A DNA stretch of 64,000 nucleotides from a marine bacterium B5-7 (GTDB lineage Bacteria; Pseudomonadota; Gammaproteobacteria; BQJM01): positions 72,887 to 136,886 of the forward strand of contig BQJM01000001.1 of the NCBI GenBank assembly GCA_021604705.1. Reading direction: 5' to 3'. Below are positions 2,792 through 59,577 of this stretch, one piece after another. Within the stretch, counting starts at the first letter, position 1, and each line of letters starts with the position of its first letter. A program made the position numbers and the translations under genes. The notes beneath the pieces are model-generated. The model searched no databases, had not been told where the DNA came from, and saw nothing but the letters and a program-made list of their open reading frames with translations.

Positions 2792-3742
2792 CTAATGGTT
2801 CTGGCGCCGTAGTTGCAGAACCTCAGCCACTTTAAACCCCGTGGCAGGATTGCGTTGGATAAACACGATTAAATCCACGGCTTGCTCGACAACAGAAATA
2901 GGTGCTGCGGGTAAAACTTCTTGGACTAAGTGATGTAAACGCAACAAGGTATCCTGTGCGCTATTAGCATGCACCGTGCAGATGCCGCCGGGATGACCCA
3001 TGTTCCACGCTTTTAACATCGCTAAGGCTGCACCATCGCGAACCTCTCCAATCACGATACGATCGGGGCGCATGCGTAAAGCACCTTTGACTAAGTCATG
3101 CATGGACTTGTTGGGAGAAGTGCATAATTTCACATGGTCAACAGCGGCAACTTGTAACTCAGGGACATCTTCAATCACGAGAATGCGTTCTTGCGTTTCT
3201 GTTAATTCAGCGAGCAGGGCATTGGTGAATGTGGTTTTACCTGAGCCCGTTCCACCAGCTACAATAATGTTTTGTTTATTCTGTATCGCGGTTTTTAATT
3301 GCTGGGATTGTTCGGCTGTCATTTGATTTGCACTGACATAATTGTCTAGAGAAAAAATTTGGCTGGCGGGTTTTCTTAGGGTAAAACAGGCTTCGCTCAC
3401 CACGGGGGGGAGCCAACCTTGAAAACGAATACCTATGTTCGGGATTTCACAGGCGAGCTCCGGATTGTTGGCATCAACGATCATGTGATGATGAGATGCT
3501 AGCAGTTTAATAATGTTTTCACGCTGCACGGTAGAAAGAATCACGGTTAGAGATTTTTTTCCGCGGGATAAATATTCTACCCAGACTTTTCCATCAGGGT
3601 TAACCAATACTTCCACGACGAGGGATTCTTGTAGTTCACGTGTGATGGCTTCCCCTAGGGCATGCTGCAGCAATGCTTGGAAACGATCTTGGCTACCGCC
3701 GTCACCCCGGGCTTGACCCGGGGTCTCCTTGCTATTCCCCAT
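2792..3742 (-). CDS. virB11: T4SS ATPase VirB11/TrbB
   Basis: Walker A GGTGSGKTT and the VirB11/CpaF architecture. It is the last gene of the virB operon. The N-terminal 15 codons are encoded by a REP element (3701..3728). Confidence 0.9.
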   Translation of the reverse strand: MGNSKETPGQARGDGGSQDRFQALLQHALGEAITRELQESLVVEVLVNPDGKVWVEYLSRGKKSLTVILSTVQRENIIKLLASHHHMIVDANNPELACEIPNIGIRFQGWLPPVVSEACFTLRKPASQIFSLDNYVSANQMTAEQSQQLKTAIQNKQNIIVAGGTGSGKTTFTNALLAELTETQERILVIEDVPELQVAAVDHVKLCTSPNKSMHDLVKGALRMRPDRIVIGEVRDGAALAMLKAWNMGHPGGICTVHANSAQDTLLRLHHLVQEVLPAAPISVVEQAVDLIVFIQRNPATGFKVAEVLQLRRQNH

Positions 3743-4820
3743 GACCTTTTCCCTGCTGCTTCATCTGCTTAAACGCATCACGAACCTGCGCTAGCGTTTT
3801 ATCTGATACACTTTTTAGGGTGTTGCGATCACGCTTCGATAAACCCGTATTAGCTTGTGATGTTTTCACCTGTACGGTGCTAGCTGCCGCTTGTGTTGCA
3901 TGGGCTGACAAGTGCGTGGCTTGTTGTACGGCCTGAGTTGCTTGTGCAACGGATGTAGGGGCTGCATGCATCGTGCTTGTCATGGCTTGTGCCGATGTTG
4001 TTGTGTTCACCACGGTAGTCGTACCAGAATCGGTTGCTGCGCCGGGGATCACCATTGTTCCTAAAAGATTACCCGCTAATTTCGGTAATTGATGTAATAA
4101 ATAAGCCAAAGCGAGGCTTGCAAGAAAAACACCCATCGCGAAATTAAAGGGATAAGGTGCAGCTAAACTAGGAATACGCAAATGCATCCATAGCCCGTAG
4201 GCTAAACCCCAAACAATCAGCATGGTGGCTAAACGGATCCCCATACTCAGTAAACTCTGAAATATCTGTGTCGACCAATGTTTAAAATGATGCAGCATAC
4301 TGAAAGGTAGTAATAACAAGCCAAACAAGCCTACCAAGTAAAAAGCCGCGTACTGCAAAACAATATTCAAAATCATCCAGCCGATGCTAAACAGCGTGCC
4401 AAAACCAATAATTAAATTAATGGCAGGGATTTTCAGTTGCGAAGCGCTGGTTTGCAGCGATTGGAAAACATGCGTGCTAAACATATACGCTAAGTCCCAT
4501 AGTTTCATGAGATGATGCGCACTGTCGGGTTGTTGATGTACATCTTGGCTGACTTGTAAGAAGCTAGCGAGTATCCAGTGTAAACCATCATTTAAATGAA
4601 AAATAACAAAGAACAAAAAGCTGAGTTTCATCACATCCAACAATAATTTTCGCCATTGCGGCTCTTGTTGAATAGCCCACAGTAAACCAAATAAGGCGAA
4701 TTCCATGCCGGAGAAAATATACAGTAAATGTAATGCGTATTGTGTTACGTGGCCGTAGCCATGCCTAATATGGTCGACAAGTTGTGTTTGTAATGTTTGT
4801 AAAATATTGGCATCTATCAT
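3732..4820 (-). CDS. virB6: T4SS inner-membrane protein VirB6/TrbL-like with a Ser/Thr/Ala/Gln-rich C-terminal tail
   Basis: About 250 aa of polytopic hydrophobic segments followed by a low-complexity hydrophilic tail. Sits between virB10 and virB11. The 4-nt ATGA overlap with virB10 suggests translational coupling. Confidence 0.6.
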   Translation of the reverse strand: MIDANILQTLQTQLVDHIRHGYGHVTQYALHLLYIFSGMEFALFGLLWAIQQEPQWRKLLLDVMKLSFLFFVIFHLNDGLHWILASFLQVSQDVHQQPDSAHHLMKLWDLAYMFSTHVFQSLQTSASQLKIPAINLIIGFGTLFSIGWMILNIVLQYAAFYLVGLFGLLLLPFSMLHHFKHWSTQIFQSLLSMGIRLATMLIVWGLAYGLWMHLRIPSLAAPYPFNFAMGVFLASLALAYLLHQLPKLAGNLLGTMVIPGAATDSGTTTVVNTTTSAQAMTSTMHAAPTSVAQATQAVQQATHLSAHATQAAASTVQVKTSQANTGLSKRDRNTLKSVSDKTLAQVRDAFKQMKQQGKGHGE

Positions 4821-6028
4821 GCGGATGCCAAAGCGTTAAGGTAAGGGGTGAGTACCATATCCTTATTGACGATGATGTTGAACGCATACCCAGCAGGAAT
4901 GACCAAGGTGGGTTGAATATTGATCGCACGATCAGTGAGTTGTTGTCCGACTTGCGATACGTTGCTTGCGACACCGATTGCTGCACCTTGGCCACTGCTG
5001 CGATAAAAATTGTTGTCATTACCATAGCTGTTGTCAGAAACAGCGCCGGTTCCTAAACTGAGTACAGAAGATAATACCGCAGCACCCATCACGCGCCCCC
5101 AGTGATTGTTCACACTACCTTGCATACCAGATTGACCGAACAGATCTGTTCCTTGTGCATTACTCAGTAGAATGGATTCACCATTTGGCATGATGATGCG
5201 TTTAAAGACGATAAGTACACGGGTTTGGCCATAAGCGACTTGCGAGTCGTATTGGCCGACTAAGCGAGAACCTTTAGGAATCAGCAGCGTATTGCCAGTG
5301 ACCGTATCGTATAAATCTTCATTTACTTGCGACACAATTTCGCCCGGTAAAGAGGTGTTCACCGCGGTGATGAGAATAGCGGGGATGATAGTGCCTGCTT
5401 GAATTTCATCAGGTGAGAGCGGTGTTTCTAAATGGTGTGTGTTATAAATATTTTTGGTATCTTCATCGTCACTTTCTTGCAAGAAGGCCAGTTTTTGTTT
5501 TTGCATGTTTTGTTGTACGTAGCGATTAACCCGCGTGTGTTTACTATGCTTGCCTTCATCGCTTGCTTTGTCTTTTTTGTCACTGGCGGCTGCGGTATTA
5601 GACGTTTTAATTTTCTTGCTAGGTGGCTGAATACCTGGGAAAAACATGACGCTGGTCGCCGCTTGTTTATCTGCTTGGCTGTGCACAGGTTGATGCTGCA
5701 ATTTTTCCTGCAAGGCAGCCAATTGTTTAGCAAGCGCAGCTTGTTGCGCACGCATCGCGCGCATGGCAGCACTATCGCCTGAGGGTTGCGGCGAGATATG
5801 TTGATAATCATTCGGCAGTTGTTCAATGACCGCAGATTTTTCAGGGGTGTTGTTATCATGCCATGCATTTTTCGTATGTGAATGATGAGATGGTGCCCGG
5901 AAGGCCGTAATTAGAACGACAGAAAAAACTAAAGCGGCCAGCCCAACTAAGAGAACGATAACCGTTTTGTTGATATGAGTAGGTTTGGGCGTAGGCGGCT
6001 TAATGTGAAAAGCTTCCTTGTCGCTCAT
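4817..6028 (-). CDS. virB10: T4SS protein VirB10/TrbI
   Basis: N-terminal TM segment, Pro/Gln-rich linker and a C-terminal TrbI/VirB10 domain (TIIPAILITAVNTSLPG...NTLLIPKGSRLVGQY). Confidence 0.9.
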   Translation of the reverse strand: MSDKEAFHIKPPTPKPTHINKTVIVLLVGLAALVFSVVLITAFRAPSHHSHTKNAWHDNNTPEKSAVIEQLPNDYQHISPQPSGDSAAMRAMRAQQAALAKQLAALQEKLQHQPVHSQADKQAATSVMFFPGIQPPSKKIKTSNTAAASDKKDKASDEGKHSKHTRVNRYVQQNMQKQKLAFLQESDDEDTKNIYNTHHLETPLSPDEIQAGTIIPAILITAVNTSLPGEIVSQVNEDLYDTVTGNTLLIPKGSRLVGQYDSQVAYGQTRVLIVFKRIIMPNGESILLSNAQGTDLFGQSGMQGSVNNHWGRVMGAAVLSSVLSLGTGAVSDNSYGNDNNFYRSSGQGAAIGVASNVSQVGQQLTDRAINIQPTLVIPAGYAFNIIVNKDMVLTPYLNALASA

Positions 6029-7023
6029 GATGTGCGTCTCGTAATTAACACGATGGTTGGATCGGATTGTCCCATGCGTAATTGTGCATGGCTGATTAAA
6101 CGATCGACTACATAAAAGTTGCCTTGCACGCGATAATTCGTGATCACCGGTTGATCGGCATTACCAACAAACAACACGGGTGCTTGTTGTAAATTGGCAG
6201 GGAATTGAATATAGGTTTTATGCCCATCAGAAAACACACCCGTTGGCATCCATGCGGGCGTTTCACCTTCATGGGCGACGGTGACATCGTAATGAAAATT
6301 TAAATGATTCACATCGATAGACGCTTGTTGGAAAAGCGGTTTTGTTGGTTGCGCATAATGTTTCACAAAATCCTGCGTATCGGCATAACGCCACCGAACG
6401 ATAGCCACGTATGTGTCATTCGTGGAGAGCAGTTGTAAATGGTAAGTACGACGATTAGTGGTGACCACAAGACTATTGTGAATAGCGGATTGTGTGGGCT
6501 TCACCAACAAATGCTGTTGCATACTGCTGCCAGCACCGCTAAAGGTTTTAGACACTTGCCAGCGCAGGGTATCACCTGCAGCCACTGAAGTGACGCGTTC
6601 ACCCGTTTGTAATTGAATGTCCGTGACATCCATGGGCGCACAATAAATTTTGAATAAAGAGCCTGGCACATAATCAAAGGTCATGATGGCATCTTGAAAA
6701 TGTTGTGTGTCGGGTTGCTGCTGTGCTTTTTTGTTGGCAGCTTGTACGGCTTGTTGGCCGACGACAGTAGATGTTGTTTTAGGTTTTGGCACACTCACCA
6801 TGTGTTCTGGCGTGACGCTTTGTATGCTGGGTTTTGGCAGGGTAGCCGGATTGATGGTTTGCACAACGGGTGCATTGACGGCGACGGCTGGCGCGTAAGC
6901 AACATCATCGCTTGATGATGCCATCGGCTCATGCATGCAAGCCGTTAAGCTCAACGCGAAGCAGCAGAGAATGAGTTTGTTATGTTGCATGATTATCGTT
7001 CCGCGTTGAAAAATGGAAGTCAC
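6025..7023 (-). CDS. virB9: T4SS protein VirB9/TrbG; predicted lipoprotein with a Pro/Ala-rich N-terminal extension
   Basis: VirB9/CagX domain in the C-terminal 220 aa. Signal peptide with lipobox LTAC (MQHNKLILCCFALSLTAC), so the true start may be the internal Met near 6990. A ~100 aa low-complexity linker lies between them. Confidence 0.85.
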   Translation of the reverse strand: MTSIFQRGTIIMQHNKLILCCFALSLTACMHEPMASSSDDVAYAPAVAVNAPVVQTINPATLPKPSIQSVTPEHMVSVPKPKTTSTVVGQQAVQAANKKAQQQPDTQHFQDAIMTFDYVPGSLFKIYCAPMDVTDIQLQTGERVTSVAAGDTLRWQVSKTFSGAGSSMQQHLLVKPTQSAIHNSLVVTTNRRTYHLQLLSTNDTYVAIVRWRYADTQDFVKHYAQPTKPLFQQASIDVNHLNFHYDVTVAHEGETPAWMPTGVFSDGHKTYIQFPANLQQAPVLFVGNADQPVITNYRVQGNFYVVDRLISHAQLRMGQSDPTIVLITRRTS

Positions 7024-7714
7024 TAATAAATAAACCCAATGGGTTTTTCATAATTTGTGCTTGAGAACCTGGTGTCGAGAAATGTAGCGTAAATACGCCA
7101 TTATAATCGACTGTGCTGACGTGCTTGTTGTTTAAATCGGTGGAGGTTTCTTGCCAGTCGATAGAATAAGTATGATCACTAATCGGATTGATATCTTGAA
7201 CTTTTACAACAACCGTTTTCTGGCCCAGTAATTTTTGTGGCGCAGACTTTCTCATATCTTCATTGAATAAGTGTGATCCGTGTTGCGTGAGGAAACTATA
7301 GGCGCGTAACCAGTTTTGTTTGGCCACAACGGGATCTAATGGTAAGGCACGCATGTCTTGTACAAACTGTCCGAGGAAATAAGTGATCTGTGCTTGATTT
7401 GGTGTGTAGTGGCGTTGCAGTGGTGCGACATTCACAACGCGACCGGCATGTGAAATTTCTGCGACGAATACTTTTAATTTACTGGTAGAGAGTTGCCAGC
7501 ACAATAAAGCGAGACTCGCGGCCGCCAATAGTAAGGATGCCAACGCGACAAGCCGCCAATTACGCGCTTGGACTTGTGCATGTCCAATACGCGTATCCCA
7601 GGTTTGTTGGGCGCGTTGATACGGGGTATCGCTTGCATCGCTAGGATAGGTTGGGATGTTTTCTTGAAAGGGTTTTTCGCTCATGCTTACTCTACTATTG
7701 ATTCCCATACCCAA
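6980..7714 (-). CDS. virB8: T4SS protein VirB8/TrbF
   Basis: Cytoplasmic N-terminus, one TM segment, periplasmic domain with the conserved NPLG motif near the C-terminus. Overlaps the virB4 stop. Confidence 0.8.
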   Translation of the reverse strand: MGMGINSRVSMSEKPFQENIPTYPSDASDTPYQRAQQTWDTRIGHAQVQARNWRLVALASLLLAAASLALLCWQLSTSKLKVFVAEISHAGRVVNVAPLQRHYTPNQAQITYFLGQFVQDMRALPLDPVVAKQNWLRAYSFLTQHGSHLFNEDMRKSAPQKLLGQKTVVVKVQDINPISDHTYSIDWQETSTDLNNKHVSTVDYNGVFTLHFSTPGSQAQIMKNPLGLFISDFHFSTRNDNHAT

Positions 7715-10173
7715 GCCAAGTCTTGTTGCGTTAAATAACGTTGCAAGAATTGTTGATAATCGTCTTGCTCATGCGCGGCTCTGACTGCGTGTTGGGCAGT
7801 TTTACTCGTGGCAGCGCAAAAAGCTTGGGCAACGACCCCCAATTCTACATCAAATAGTCGATTACCCAATCGGGACTGATAATAATATTGGCGTTTTGGG
7901 GTGGCATGGGCGAGATTGTTTAACTCACGTTCATTTAAGCCAAGTTCTGCGTAATGGGCTCGGACAGCGGGTTCTAAAGTGCGGTCGTTAGGTAAGAAAA
8001 TTCTCGCTGGGCAAGCTTCAAGTAGGGTGGATGCCAGTGAGCTTTCCAGTGCATCATCGACTGATTGTGTGGCGAAGACGACGCTGACATTGTGTTTCCG
8101 TAAAGTTTTCAACCACTCTCGGATTTTATCCGCGAAAATAGGATGGTCGAGAAATAGCCAGGCCTCATCTAGCACCAGTAAGGTTGGTTCGCCCGTTAAT
8201 TGTTTTTCCACCCGATGAAATAAGTAACTCAACGTCGGCGCGACGATGTTGGGTGTTTGCATCAGTGTTTCCATTTCAAAACATTGCCAATGGTTATCGA
8301 CGGTGGTCTCGTGATCGGCATCAAACAAATACCCATAGGCACCGGATAAAGTATAAGCCTGCAATGCTTGGCGCAATGCTTGGTGTTGTAATAGCGCGAC
8401 CAAACCGGTTAGCGTGCGCTGTGTTGCGGGCATTGCCGTGAGGGCTTGTAGCGCTTCCCAAATAGCTTGTTTTTCTTTTGGGGTGATAGTGATATTTTCG
8501 TGGGCGATTAAACCGAGCAACCATTCTTGTGCCCACAAACACGTGCTTTTATCGTCGATGTGACGTAAAGGTTGAAAGGCCATGGGGGTATCATCAGTTT
8601 TTCCTAATTCAAAATGTGCGCCATTAACGCCCCAAGTACTTGCAAGAAAACTGCCACCTTTATCAAAAATAAAAATATTGGCATTGGTGTAACGTCTAAA
8701 CTGCATGGCCATTAAAGTAAGTAAGACTGATTTTCCGGCGCCAGTTGGTCCCACAATAAAAGTATGACCGACATCACCGATGTGGTTCACTAAACGAAAC
8801 GGCGTGCGACCTTCAGAGTGCACCGTCATTAAAGGCGGTGCTTGTAAATGATCATCACGTTTAGGACCAGACCACACGGCGGACAATGGCATTAAGTGGG
8901 CGAGATTTAAGGTGTTTAATAGAGGTTTTCGCACATTCGCATAGGCTTGCCCCGGCAATGAGGATAACCAGGCTTCAACGGCATTATAGGTCTCAATAAT
9001 TGTTGTAAAGCCTAAACCATTAATTACGCGCTCGAGTAATTGTAATTGTGTATCAACTTCTGCTTGCGATTTTCCGCGGACAGTAATCGTTGTCGTGTAA
9101 TAACCAAAGGTGACTTGATCGTCGGCCAGTTCTTGTAAGGCCTCATCAACATCACGAGATTTTTGTATCGCTGAAGAATCGGTGAGTTGTGATTCTGTTT
9201 TGGTGAAAACTTCTTGTAACAACTGCAACATGCCTTTACGTTTCGCGAACCAACGTTGGCGATAACGCTTAAGCGTTTTCTCTGCATCGATTTTATCAAG
9301 GGGCATAAATCGTGTGACCCAGCGATAACGCATGGGCAAGTGATTGAGTTGATCAAGCAAGGCTGGCAAGGTGCTGGATGGAAAACTTAATACGGATAAA
9401 ACCCCTAAATGTTCTTCACCAAGTTTCGGTGCAAGACCTGCTAGCAAAGGCGTATCGGCTAAAAATGCATCGAGATACATCGGGTTTTCCGGTGTTTTGA
9501 CCGGATGATTCTTGCAAGAGATCGCTTGATGCAAGTAAGTCAGTGTTTCATCATCGCTGAGTGCCTCAGCTTCGTAACAAACATCTTGTAACAAATGTAA
9601 GATGCGTGTCACCGTGGCAGTAAAGTAATCGCGGACCTCATGTGAGTCTTCTTTTGTGTCGTCATCTGTTTTAGTAATAAACCAGCGTGACATTTTTTTA
9701 TGTGATTGCGAAGGAGGTAAGTATTGCAGCGTAATATAATAATCACTTTCAAACGAAGCATCCGCTTGCATGAAGCTTTCATTGCGTTCTGCATCAATTA
9801 GCCAGCTGATGGGATCAGGAAAGGCACTGTCATTTTTGCTGAAGGTGTAGGGGCGACGATTGGCTTCAATGTAAATAGCCCAGCCCGATCCTAAACGTTT
9901 TAATGCATTGTTGAGGCGTGCGCTTACTGTCACTAATTGTGTGTCGGTTGCAGAAGCAAGATCAGGACCACGGAAACGCAAAGTTTGTTGTAAGGACCCA
10001 TCCTTATTAAGGATAACGCCAGGCGCAATCAATGCAGCCCATGGTAGTAAATCGGCTAATTGGTCGGGGTGTTTTTTGTATTCCGTTAAATTAAACATGA
10101 TAAAACTTTTTCTTGCGTAGGCAGCGAATAAACACTTCAAAGAAATCGGGATCCCGTTTGGCAAGGATGACAC
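7687..10173 (-). CDS. virB4: T4SS ATPase VirB4/TrbE
   Basis: 828 aa with Walker A GPTGAGKS and a CagE/TrbE/VirB4 layout. Confidence 0.95.
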   Translation of the reverse strand: MSSLPNGIPISLKCLFAAYARKSFIMFNLTEYKKHPDQLADLLPWAALIAPGVILNKDGSLQQTLRFRGPDLASATDTQLVTVSARLNNALKRLGSGWAIYIEANRRPYTFSKNDSAFPDPISWLIDAERNESFMQADASFESDYYITLQYLPPSQSHKKMSRWFITKTDDDTKEDSHEVRDYFTATVTRILHLLQDVCYEAEALSDDETLTYLHQAISCKNHPVKTPENPMYLDAFLADTPLLAGLAPKLGEEHLGVLSVLSFPSSTLPALLDQLNHLPMRYRWVTRFMPLDKIDAEKTLKRYRQRWFAKRKGMLQLLQEVFTKTESQLTDSSAIQKSRDVDEALQELADDQVTFGYYTTTITVRGKSQAEVDTQLQLLERVINGLGFTTIIETYNAVEAWLSSLPGQAYANVRKPLLNTLNLAHLMPLSAVWSGPKRDDHLQAPPLMTVHSEGRTPFRLVNHIGDVGHTFIVGPTGAGKSVLLTLMAMQFRRYTNANIFIFDKGGSFLASTWGVNGAHFELGKTDDTPMAFQPLRHIDDKSTCLWAQEWLLGLIAHENITITPKEKQAIWEALQALTAMPATQRTLTGLVALLQHQALRQALQAYTLSGAYGYLFDADHETTVDNHWQCFEMETLMQTPNIVAPTLSYLFHRVEKQLTGEPTLLVLDEAWLFLDHPIFADKIREWLKTLRKHNVSVVFATQSVDDALESSLASTLLEACPARIFLPNDRTLEPAVRAHYAELGLNERELNNLAHATPKRQYYYQSRLGNRLFDVELGVVAQAFCAATSKTAQHAVRAAHEQDDYQQFLQRYLTQQDLAWVWESIVE

Positions 10174-20804: not shown

Positions 20805-20872
20805 TGGAGCCAGGGTCTCCTGAAGCCACTGCAGTACTAGATGGAGACCCCGGGTCAAGCCCGGGGTGACAG
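20805..20872. repeat. REP-like palindromic elements between secD and secF
   Basis: GGAGACCCCGGGTCAAGCCCGGGGTGACAG (inverse orientation) plus a partial copy. Confidence 0.85.
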
Positions 20873-21838: not shown

Positions 21839-21882
21839 CTGTCATCCCGGAATTTTCCGAAGGAAAATGTCCGGGATCTCCT
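21839..21882. repeat. REP-like palindromic element after secF
   Basis: CTGTCATCCCGGAATTTTCCGAAGGAAAATGTCCGGGATCTCC. Confidence 0.9.
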
Positions 21883-22417: not shown

Positions 22418-22519
22418 CTGTTATCCCAGAACTACCGCTGTCATCCCGCGCTTGACGCGGGATCTCCTGAAAGCACTACAGTAATAGATGGAGACCCCGG
22501 GTCAAGCCCGGGGTGACAG
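22418..22519. repeat. REP-like elements (2 to 3 copies)
   Basis: GCTGTCATCCCGCGCTTGACGCGGGATCTCC and GGAGACCCCGGGTCAAGCCCGGGGTGACAG. Confidence 0.9.
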
Positions 22520-22545
22520 GAGTACAGTTAGTAATTTTTGCTTGG

Positions 22546-23250
22546 CTAATCTTTTACTGAATAAGGCAACGCTTGCCAAGTCATTGCAACCTCATGCAAG
22601 AAAAGGGGCGTCTCAAGCGCCGCATCTTTCACGACGCACAATGCTTGTTCGCCATCAGACAGAACCACTTTTCCAACAGCTTGCTGTTGATCATTCATCA
22701 CGACATCACCAGGTGTTGCAGAAACAACAACAGCCGCACATCGCATATGCTGTTTGATTTTCCCTAAGAAATGCATGCGCGCAACAATCTCTTGGCCGAT
22801 GTAACAACCTTTATTAAAACTGACAGCACCTAGGCTCGGTAAATTAATATCGTGCGGCGTGAATTGTTCGCTGGTTTCAGGAAAAATTTCAGGGATCCCT
22901 TGCTGGATGAGTTCCGCGACGCTGTTATCCTGTGCGCTACCACTGTCACCCCGCACTTGATGCGGGGTCTCCTTATCGATCACCGCGATACGAACCTTCG
23001 CACGTAACATGAATTTCTTAAGATTATTCATAGCTGTTTCTGCCAATGCACTGGGCACGCGCAATACAAAGCCATCGTCACGTTTCAACACACGCCACAA
23101 ACTCACGACGCGCCCTTTAGGATTACAATGTGCAGCCAGCACATCTTCGCCCACGGCAAGTGCAGCGATATCTGCTGTTAATTGCCCTTGCAGAAAGGTT
23201 TCTGTATCTTCACCTTCGCAGTGATAGTGGGTGTATGGAATGATTGACAT
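22546..23250 (-). CDS. ygfZ: tRNA-modifying folate-binding protein YgfZ
   Basis: KGCYIGQE motif. Divergent to sdhE-ygfX as in E. coli. Carries an in-frame REP insertion at 22943..22972. Confidence 0.85.
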   Translation of the reverse strand: MSIIPYTHYHCEGEDTETFLQGQLTADIAALAVGEDVLAAHCNPKGRVVSLWRVLKRDDGFVLRVPSALAETAMNNLKKFMLRAKVRIAVIDKETPHQVRGDSGSAQDNSVAELIQQGIPEIFPETSEQFTPHDINLPSLGAVSFNKGCYIGQEIVARMHFLGKIKQHMRCAAVVVSATPGDVVMNDQQQAVGKVVLSDGEQALCVVKDAALETPLFLHEVAMTWQALPYSVKD

Positions 23251-27638: not shown

Positions 27639-28016
27639 CTGTCACCCCGCACTTGATGCTTGTCATTCCAGAAAATGCGTAAGCATTTTTCTGGAATCTA
27701 GATCCCAGACATTTTCCTTTGGAAAATTCTGGGATGACATCTGCACGGCATGATACAGAACACTGTCACCCCGCACTTGATGCGGGGTCTCCTGCTAACA
27801 CTGTTGTTGCCACTGTCACCCCGCATTTGATGCTTGTCATTCCAGAAAATGCGTAAGCATTTGTCTGGAATCTAGATCCCAGACATTTTCCTTTGGAAAA
27901 TTCTGGGATGACATCTGCACGGCATGATACAGAACACTGTCACCCCGCACTTGATGCGGGGTCTCCATCTATTACCGCAGTGTCATCAGGAGATACCGCA
28001 TCAAGCACGGCATGAC
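27639..28016. repeat. compound REP array with a ~175-bp tandem duplication and nested element subtypes
   Basis: The unit CTGTCACCCCGCACTTGATGC-[TTGTCATTCCAGAAAATGCGTAAGCATTTKTCTGGAATC]-...-CTGTCACCCCGCACTTGATGCGGGGTCTCC occurs twice, at 27639..27800 and 27815..27966. Confidence 0.9.
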
Positions 28017-59243: not shown

Positions 59244-59577
59244 TTGTCACCCTGGAAAACTACTTGTCATCCTGGCCACCGCTGTCATCCCGCACTTGAT
59301 GCGGGATCCCCATCTATTACCATAGCGTCAACGCTGTCATCCCGCACTTGATGCGGGATCCCCGTCTAGTACCATAGCGTCAACGCTGTCATCCCGCACT
59401 TGATGCGGGATCCCCATCTATTACCATAGCGTCAACGCTGTCATCCCGCACTTGATGCGGGATCCCCATCTATTACCAATGTCATTCCGGCGAAAGCCGG
59501 AATCTCCTGATAGTACTGCGGTACTAGTTAGAGACCCCGGGTCAAGCCCGGGGTGACAGCAGTAAGTGGAATGACAG
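59244..59577. repeat. REP array including a 52-bp tandem repeat (3.7 copies, 59281..59470)
   Basis: Unit GCTGTCATCCCGCACTTGATGCGGGATCCCCATCTATTACCATAGCGTCAAC repeated head-to-tail, followed by TTCCGGCGAAAGCCGGAATCTCC and GAGACCCCGGGTCAAGCCCGGGGTGACAG variants. Confidence 0.9.

Follow-up and report, generated by a model that had tools for sequence, protein, structure and literature searches.

The trbB gene of the marine bacterium B5-7, which encodes a P-type conjugative transfer ATPase, carries a copy of a repeated palindromic (REP) element within its first codons. On the basis of sequence comparison we consider it fairly probable that this copy is an in-frame coding insertion and that TrbB is made from the ATG at position 3742 with 11 extra residues; the repeat-derived peptide is most likely translated. 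The gene lies in a stretch of 64,000 nt, here called the window, which is part of the metagenome-assembled genome (MAG) 'marine bacterium B5-7' (contig BQJM01000001.1, forward-strand positions 72,887-136,886). Positions given below are those of the window.

The REP copy at the start of trbB

The open reading frame (ORF) at 2792-3742 on the minus strand is 100% identical to the NCBI entry 'P-type conjugative transfer ATPase TrbB [marine bacterium B5-7]', and its 316-aa product is the same as in the NCBI annotation. A first-pass annotation of this DNA had named the gene virB11, which is correct for the family and not for the type. The product reaches 345.7 bits against the NCBIfam equivalog for P-type TrbB (TIGR02782), above the cutoff of 304.55, whereas its 185 bits against the VirB11 equivalog (TIGR02788) stay below the cutoff of 249.95, and the gene is therefore a VirB11-family ATPase gene of the TrbB type. 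The features of its start region are the following.

2792-3742, minus strand: trbB, encoding 316 aa of a P-type conjugative transfer ATPase of the VirB11 family
3732-4820, minus strand: gene for a trbL/virB6-like membrane protein, overlapping trbB by 11 nt
3742-3740, minus strand: ATG, most likely the trbB start codon and the most upstream start possible, overlapping the trbL end within ATGGGGAATAG
3734-3732, minus strand: trbL stop codon TAG, 3 nt 5' of the REP unit
3701-3728, minus strand: REP core unit GGAGA-CCCCGGG-TCAAG-CCCGGGG-TGAC
3704-3724, minus strand: hairpin proper, with eight GC-rich Watson-Crick pairs, a closing G-U pair and a 3-nt loop
3693-3700, minus strand: right flank GGCGGTAG, which fits the family flank AGYGGTAG and gives the plus-strand CGTC tag (CCGTCA)
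3695-3727, minus strand: 33 nt probably gained by the insertion (codons 6-16, peptide ETPGQARGDGG), as deduced from homolog lengths, with bounds that may shift by a few nt
3673-3671, minus strand: alternative trbB start TTG, codon 24, aligned with the nearly invariant methionine of the family

The repeat had been described as a 28-bp palindrome in codons 6-15. Its sequence is found at 3701-3728 and it does lie inside the ORF, but the palindromy does not extend beyond the 21 nt of the hairpin, the outer GGAGA and TGAC being unpaired and corresponding to the conserved flanks of the repeat unit, and the 28-mer starts at the third base of codon 5 and ends in codon 14. Counted from the A of the trbB ATG, the hairpin begins 18 nt downstream, at position +19; its distance from the trbL stop is 7 nt. 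The local fold has a minimum free energy of -27.1 kcal/mol (z -2.6). On the plus strand this copy carries a true CGTC tag, CCGTCACCCC. The reading frame stays open through the repeat, within the only long ORF of trbB, and codons 6-17 read as the peptide ETPGQARGDGGS. An intrinsic terminator or a promoter at the hairpin was considered and rejected, as there is no T-run and consensus scans remain at background level.

The coding reading is carried by the comparison with 109 TrbB homologs that have a recognisable NPDG motif. The Asn of this motif lies at positions 35-41 in 99 of these proteins, with a mode of 37 (62 homologs), and at 48 in the B5-7 protein, which is 11 residues more. The modal homologs begin with M-x3-K-S/T-x2-R-H-L-D-M-L, where K is found in 45, S/T in 56 and R in all of the 62. 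The B5-7 sequence reads MGNSK[ETPGQARGDGG]SQDRFQALL, and removal of codons 6-16, i.e. of the 33 nt that hold the core and the right flank, joins it to MGNSK|SQDRFQALL. The shortened protein MGNSKSQDRFQALL regains K5, S/T6 and R9 and has the NPDG Asn at 37. The ortholog alignment that had been proposed as a check on the N-terminus thus yields a clean 11-codon surplus precisely at the repeat. A second proposed check was a structure model. The AlphaFold2 model of TrbB has a mean predicted local distance difference test score (pLDDT) of 88.4, and residues 6-13 fall below 50 and are modelled as coil, so that the insert would form a disordered tail at the N-terminus, before the first helix.

An alternative is that the repeat is non-coding, with TrbB starting at the TTG of codon 24, the REP being extragenic in a short trbL-trbB leader and the ATG frame an annotation artefact. 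We regard this as unlikely, although several points speak for it and weigh against a coding insertion. TTG 24 is aligned with the methionine mentioned above, from which 6 of the 109 homologs are annotated. A site 3 nt after an upstream stop is typical of REPs between genes of the same direction, and N-terminal REPs are often located outside the real coding region owing to mis-called starts, most of them having been deemed extragenic (Di Nocera et al. 2013, BMC Genomics 14:522, PMC3733652). The open frame over 23 codons is weak evidence, as its chance is about 1 in 3. The closest TrbB homolog is only 55% identical, which leaves no empty-site ortholog to compare, and a plasmid search with trbB gave short matches only, with about 75% identity to rhizobial trbB. 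Finally, the left flank AATAGCAA-GGAGA resembles that of intergenic copies, such as TAGCA-GGAGA (27765) and TAGCT-GGAGA (37583), and this likeness makes the insertion bounds, as well as an origin of the trbL TAG from the element, uncertain.

Other evidence speaks for the upstream start. R20 is invariant, and the K-S/T-x-x-R-H-L-D block before the methionine is conserved as amino acids across the modal homologs (62/62), which argues that the family start lies upstream of it; a start at TTG 24 would drop R20 and cut 9 residues from the predicted helix 15-29. No in-frame start exists between codon 1 and this TTG, and no Shine-Dalgarno-like motif precedes it. The overlap of the ATG at 3742 with the trbL stop is the arrangement typical of coupled genes. 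An AAGG Shine-Dalgarno sequence had been proposed 6 nt upstream of this ATG; the motif is present at -6 to -3, just 2 nt from the ATG, and an AGGGA at -13 to -9 is better spaced. The surplus is exactly 11 codons, with the family N-terminus matched on both sides, and the trbB frame of the repeat is the one used by three unquestionably coding copies.

The exact bounds of the insertion permit a variant. It is possible, judging from the flanks, that 39 nt with TAGC-like ends were inserted into an ancestral MGNSQDR. The TAGCAAG and TAGCCAAG around the core were also considered as a target-site duplication; as TAGC-like motifs end other copies as well, they are indistinguishable from element sequence.

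Copies inside other genes

The first-pass annotation had likened the trbB copy to the Rickettsia palindromic elements (RPEs), which insert in frame into protein genes, and in-frame occurrence is borne out beyond trbB: 4 of the approximately 19 copies in the window lie in intact ORFs, three of them unambiguously internal.

22945-22972, minus strand: REP in ygfZ (22546-23250), residues 93-104 of 234, read as ETPHQVRGDSGS, in the orientation and frame of the trbB copy
59989-60016, minus strand: REP in a 644-aa orphan ORF, read as EIPDQVRDDRVV, in the same frame as in trbB
60241-60268, minus strand: decayed REP in the same orphan ORF, read as EIPAQDQDDSDD, in the same frame as in trbB

All four copies share one orientation and one frame and encode the common peptide E-T/I-P-x-Q-x-R/Q-G/D-D. 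As four of the six frames of the repeat unit are open, the chance of finding four of four copies in a single frame is about 1 in 64.

In a metagenomic relative (L121) with a YgfZ that is 84-89% identical, an identical element is found at the same ygfZ site. In this relative the 3' half of the REP has, in addition, been partially duplicated within the gene; the 42 nt of the duplication (4053-4094 of that sequence) are in frame, add 14 residues and indicate that the repeat-derived segment is still expanding within the coding region. A 52%-identical YgfZ does not have the segment. In the orphan protein both repeat-derived peptides are kept in its only homolog. Copy 60241 has lost its stem pairing, as is expected of a sequence that now evolves as protein.

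The two host proteins have peculiarities of their own. YgfZ (22546-23250, minus strand) is a short form of 234 aa, compared with 328-338 aa in the chains 1NRK and 1VLY from E. coli; it lacks about 65 residues of E. coli YgfZ, and the REP-derived peptide is located at that junction. Its score against the full-length YgfZ equivalog of NCBIfam is 113.8, below the cutoff of 219, and the C-terminal CAF17-like domain passes. The orphan (59593-61527, minus strand) is acidic and has no Pfam or NCBIfam match, and only one homolog, at 41% identity, was found for it among 1.84 billion representatives. Conservation in the stretch at the first REP peptide of the orphan (ALEAQESITP..QEIP.Q..DDSDDDQFVDAVEDL) is much higher than in the remainder of the protein. 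In both TrbB (3701-3709) and YgfZ (22945-22953, both on the minus strand), the 3' stem arm and tag (CGG GGT GAC) are read as an RGD tripeptide, which is probably incidental, both proteins being expected to be cytoplasmic.

The repeat family in the window

That the palindrome belongs to a genuine REP family, as had been proposed, is well supported. The pattern GGAGA-N7-TCAAG-N7-TGAC has 19 matches at up to two mismatches versus 0.23 expected in the window. The 21-mer core occurs there in four exact copies and in none of 100 shuffles; besides trbB it is found unchanged at 20843, 22490 and 59530, the first two matching the full 28-mer and the third differing at one flank base. When 17 copies were aligned, 96% of the stem cells were paired, four of the nine pairs had changes on both sides, and the covariation score was reached by none of 500 shuffles and collapsed in slid controls. 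The variation is confined to the stems (CCCCGGG, TCCCGCG, CCCCGCA, TCCCGGC, TTCCGGC), while the flanks and the loop do not vary; every window copy has the loop TCAAG/CTTGA, and so do more than 240 loci from other organisms. The first stem pair is A-U in 16 of the 17 aligned copies, all 17 have GTCA (TGAC on the element strand), and the base before it is C in trbB and mostly T elsewhere (TGTC). The tail on the tag strand is CTCC(A/T) and contains CCA in most intergenic copies.

12197-12224, minus strand: intergenic single REP, match to the family pattern
20843-20870, plus strand: intergenic REP with a degenerate inverted partner, between a 621-aa gene and secF
22440-22517: intergenic inverted dimer downstream of ygfZ, with one unit at 22440-22467 (minus), the other at 22490-22517 (plus) and 22 nt of spacer between them, in the full-length form with left flank GGTAATAGAT
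27765-28016: intergenic cluster with a single REP at 27765 and the inverted dimer 27939/27989
37436-37610: intergenic cluster of copies at 37436 (plus) and at 37551 and 37583 (both minus); it ends 8 nt past the stop of a 518-aa gene
59280-59557: intergenic REP units in a 52-bp tandem array (x3.8) and, after it, in an inverted dimer, last copy at 59530-59557

Copies are arranged as singles, as inverted dimers with the 22-nt spacer (22440/22490, 27939/27989 and 59475/59530) and as the 52-bp tandem array. This array (59280-59478; 3.8 copies, 97% matches) lies in the convergent gap between gatB and the gene of the 644-aa orphan; its inter-unit sequence is identical throughout, and a CRISPR was ruled out because the spacers do not differ. 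Full-length intergenic copies have an extra left flank GGTA(A/C)TAGAT and the right flank AGYGGT(AG). The intragenic copies are devoid of the left flank, which in the coding frame would be read as TAG-ATG, a stop followed by a start. The same TAG-ATG creates short ORFs from intergenic copies that begin with METPGQARGD..., for example an 89-aa ORF at 22488-22757 (plus strand); these are likely spurious and could mislead gene callers.

A second palindromic family was also observed, with shared arms TGTCATCCC...GGGAT and a long loop (TTTCCAAAGGAAAAT), at 12252-12289 (minus), 21840-21877 (plus), 27702-27739 (minus) and 27876-27913 (minus). It often adjoins the short-loop REPs, which suggests composite elements. 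An Rfam search over the window returned no family for the repeat and just a tRNA gene (42865-42937, minus) and a thiamine pyrophosphate riboswitch (43401-43504, plus) upstream of the ORF 43489-44217.

Operon setting and possible consequences

Upstream of trbB and on the same strand lie the trbL/virB6-like gene, virB10, virB9, virB8 and virB4, and trbB is the last gene of the operon. The type IV secretion system (T4SS) cluster as a whole (2792-10173, minus strand) has an unusual order and mix of genes, namely virB4, virB8, virB9 (CagX), virB10 (TrbI), a very divergent trbL and a P-type trbB, and after trbB comes a convergent gene for a flavin-type oxidoreductase. The host of the repeat is a deep-branching, unclassified gammaproteobacterial MAG with 44% GC; the homologs of its GatB come from scattered taxa and reach no more than 73% identity.

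The most likely course of the insertion is the following. At the junction of trbL and trbB, 3 nt beyond the stop of trbL, a single CGTC/TGTC REP unit would have inserted. As trbB starts 11 nt before the end of trbL, the usual REP site after a stop falls inside trbB here, and the element would have caused a net gain of 33 nt in the one orientation and frame that read as a hydrophilic, Gly/Pro-rich stretch, placing ETPGQARGDGG between the ancestral K5 and S6. With the frame open, the peptide hydrophilic and the N-terminal tail naturally disordered, the insertion could be tolerated and survive, and according to the structure model it is probably neutral for the ATPase. The stable hairpin could in addition damp or tune trbL termination and the coupling or re-initiation of trbB, or protect the upstream operon mRNA, by analogy with E. 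coli REPs.

This last possibility can be extended to the view that the element is retained mainly for a function at the RNA level, where the hairpin would stall ribosomes or block 3'-5' exonucleases and set the TrbL:TrbB ratio, with the encoded peptide as a by-product. By analogy we hold this to be conceivable, if rather doubtful, and it can coexist with a coding insertion. The trbB hairpin, positioned 7 nt after the trbL UAG and early within trbB, the last gene of the operon, is stable, perfectly intact and the same as in intergenic copies, while pairing has been lost in the older intragenic copy 60241. REPs of E. coli are said to stabilise upstream mRNA (a finding attributed to Newbury, 1987), and a REP that lies no more than 15 nt from a stop codon reportedly lowers the expression of the upstream gene (as attributed to Liang, Rudd and Deutscher, 2015); both would favour such a role. 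REPs, moreover, have been described as mostly following ORFs and as being transcribed (PMC3733652). On the other hand, an intact hairpin may merely reflect a recent insertion, the hairpin is without a T-run or terminator-like feature, and a scan with the family pattern detected no REP at the other operon junctions of the T4SS cluster.

It could also be argued that the T4SS cluster is decaying and that trbB is a pseudogene in the making, in which an insertion has no consequence. TrbL is indeed very divergent (51 bits versus a cutoff of 128.85), the gene order is atypical, and REP insertions accumulate under relaxed selection. We nevertheless consider this very improbable: TrbB is full length, exceeds its equivalog cutoff, retains every residue that does not vary among 31 homologs (the Walker A motif included) and is modelled with the mean pLDDT given above, and the neighboring VirB4, VirB8, VirB9 and VirB10 ORFs are intact.

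The in-frame coding insertion is the preferred reading. In the annotation, trbB should probably continue to start at the ATG at 3742, with the 11 N-terminal residues labelled as repeat-derived. The evidence is unusually clean for such a case, combining an exact codon surplus, a frame shared in four genes and conservation in relatives, and the case illustrates how the usual REP site just past a stop becomes a coding insertion where neighboring genes overlap. Four intragenic copies among about 19 in 64 kb, with strict frame use and in a gammaproteobacterial lineage, are mildly notable. More speculatively, REPs might have spread genome-wide into the coding sequence of this lineage in a Rickettsia-like manner: approximately one in five copies is intragenic, in one orientation and frame, and the recurrent E-T/I-P-x-Q-x-R-G/D-D module persists in relatives and expands in frame. 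We hold this to be a tentative proposal with the odds against it, but if true, the spread would be an independent natural experiment in the repeat-driven birth of protein segments and would offer a way to find what recognises the CGTC hairpin, whose conservation across phyla is striking.

Comparison with known repeat systems

The element fits each testable feature of the written definition of the CGTC/TGTC-tagged REP superfamily (PMC3733652), and the insertion is a documented kind of event and no new class of element. In CGTC REPs one end of the palindrome carries the unpaired CGTC tag, which often has the form TGTC or CCTC. These REPs further have an 8-9 bp stem with almost always A-T at the first position, a 4-5 nt loop of few major types and a short unpaired tail with the consensus CCA; they occur mostly as inverted dimers, mainly in alphaproteobacterial hosts, and have no associated transposase (PMC3733652). 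The B5-7 repeat agrees in its CGTC/TGTC tag, its GC-rich stem of 8-9 bp opened by A-T, its 4-5 nt loop, its singles and inverted dimers and its preference for sites shortly after ORFs. It differs in that most copies have the TGTC form, in the presence of tandem clusters, which are rare for CGTC REPs (PMC3733652), and in its host, a gammaproteobacterial MAG of 44% GC instead of an alphaproteobacterium. No Y1 transposase domain was detected in the 18 window ORFs scanned with Pfam.

The 21-mer occurs in at least 120 genome loci, mostly of Sphingomonadales, and GACG, the reverse complement of CGTC, follows in 127 of the 148 matches listed. The 28-nt core is present in at least 120 metagenome contigs with GC contents from 29% to 70%. 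Across these loci (L001-L120 from genomes, L122-L241 from metagenomes) the hairpin, the loop TCAAG and the flanks are nearly unchanged in Sphingomonadales, Binatia, termite-gut and soda-lake contigs. Where metagenome copies lie in long ORFs, the trbB-type frame is used 15 times and the other open frames 8, 6 and 3 times, a count that is noisy and includes spurious ORFs of high-GC sequences. The case touches on a wider question, namely which factor mobilises or recognises CGTC REPs; their loop and flanks show conservation all the way from Sphingomonadales to the B5-7 MAG.

Intragenic CGTC units encode 7-10 residues each and are often N-terminal (PMC3733652). The frame used here, E-T/I-P-x-Q-x-R-G/D-D, is distinct from alphaproteobacterial CGTC-3 examples, which read D-G-R-V-K-P-G-H-D or V-I-P-G-L-D-P-G-I (PMC3733652). 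The first-pass annotation regarded in-frame insertion as practically unreported beyond Rickettsia and a small number of other lineages; this does not hold, as intragenic REPs of the GTAG and CGTC kinds are tabulated for over a dozen species (PMC3733652).

The GTAG REPs and REPINs of E. coli and Pseudomonas, which RAYT transposases mobilise, are similar in being short GC-rich hairpins with an unpaired tetranucleotide that form inverted doublets and lie after stop codons. A GTAG REP/REPIN-RAYT system was ruled out for the B5-7 repeat, as its tag is (C/T)GTC and the 18 window ORFs tested gave no Y1_Tnp match. QMITE1 and QMITE2 of Coxiella burnetii (Wachter et al. 2018, PMC5896051) are likewise small non-autonomous repeats of a gammaproteobacterium that overlap ORFs and can add peptides, and other intragenic miniature inverted-repeat transposable elements of bacteria, such as ERIC and BOX, are alike in this respect (review PMC10969869). 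The QMITEs differ by their length of 150-400 bp, terminal inverted repeats and target duplications, and QMITE2 carries a GTAG REP.

The parallel with the RPEs (Ogata et al. 2000, 2002), drawn here by description, is apt. These are palindromic as well, are found in frame in unrelated genes and add a surface or loop peptide while the protein is kept, and R. conorii RPE-4 and RPE-6 have been equated with CGTC-4 and CGTC-1 REPs, respectively (PMC3733652). RPE-1 is larger, with about 100-150 bp and 30-50 residues, compared with a unit of about 33-36 bp and 11 residues in B5-7, and belongs to another lineage. The trbB insertion adds a gammaproteobacterial example to the REPs that decorate proteins.

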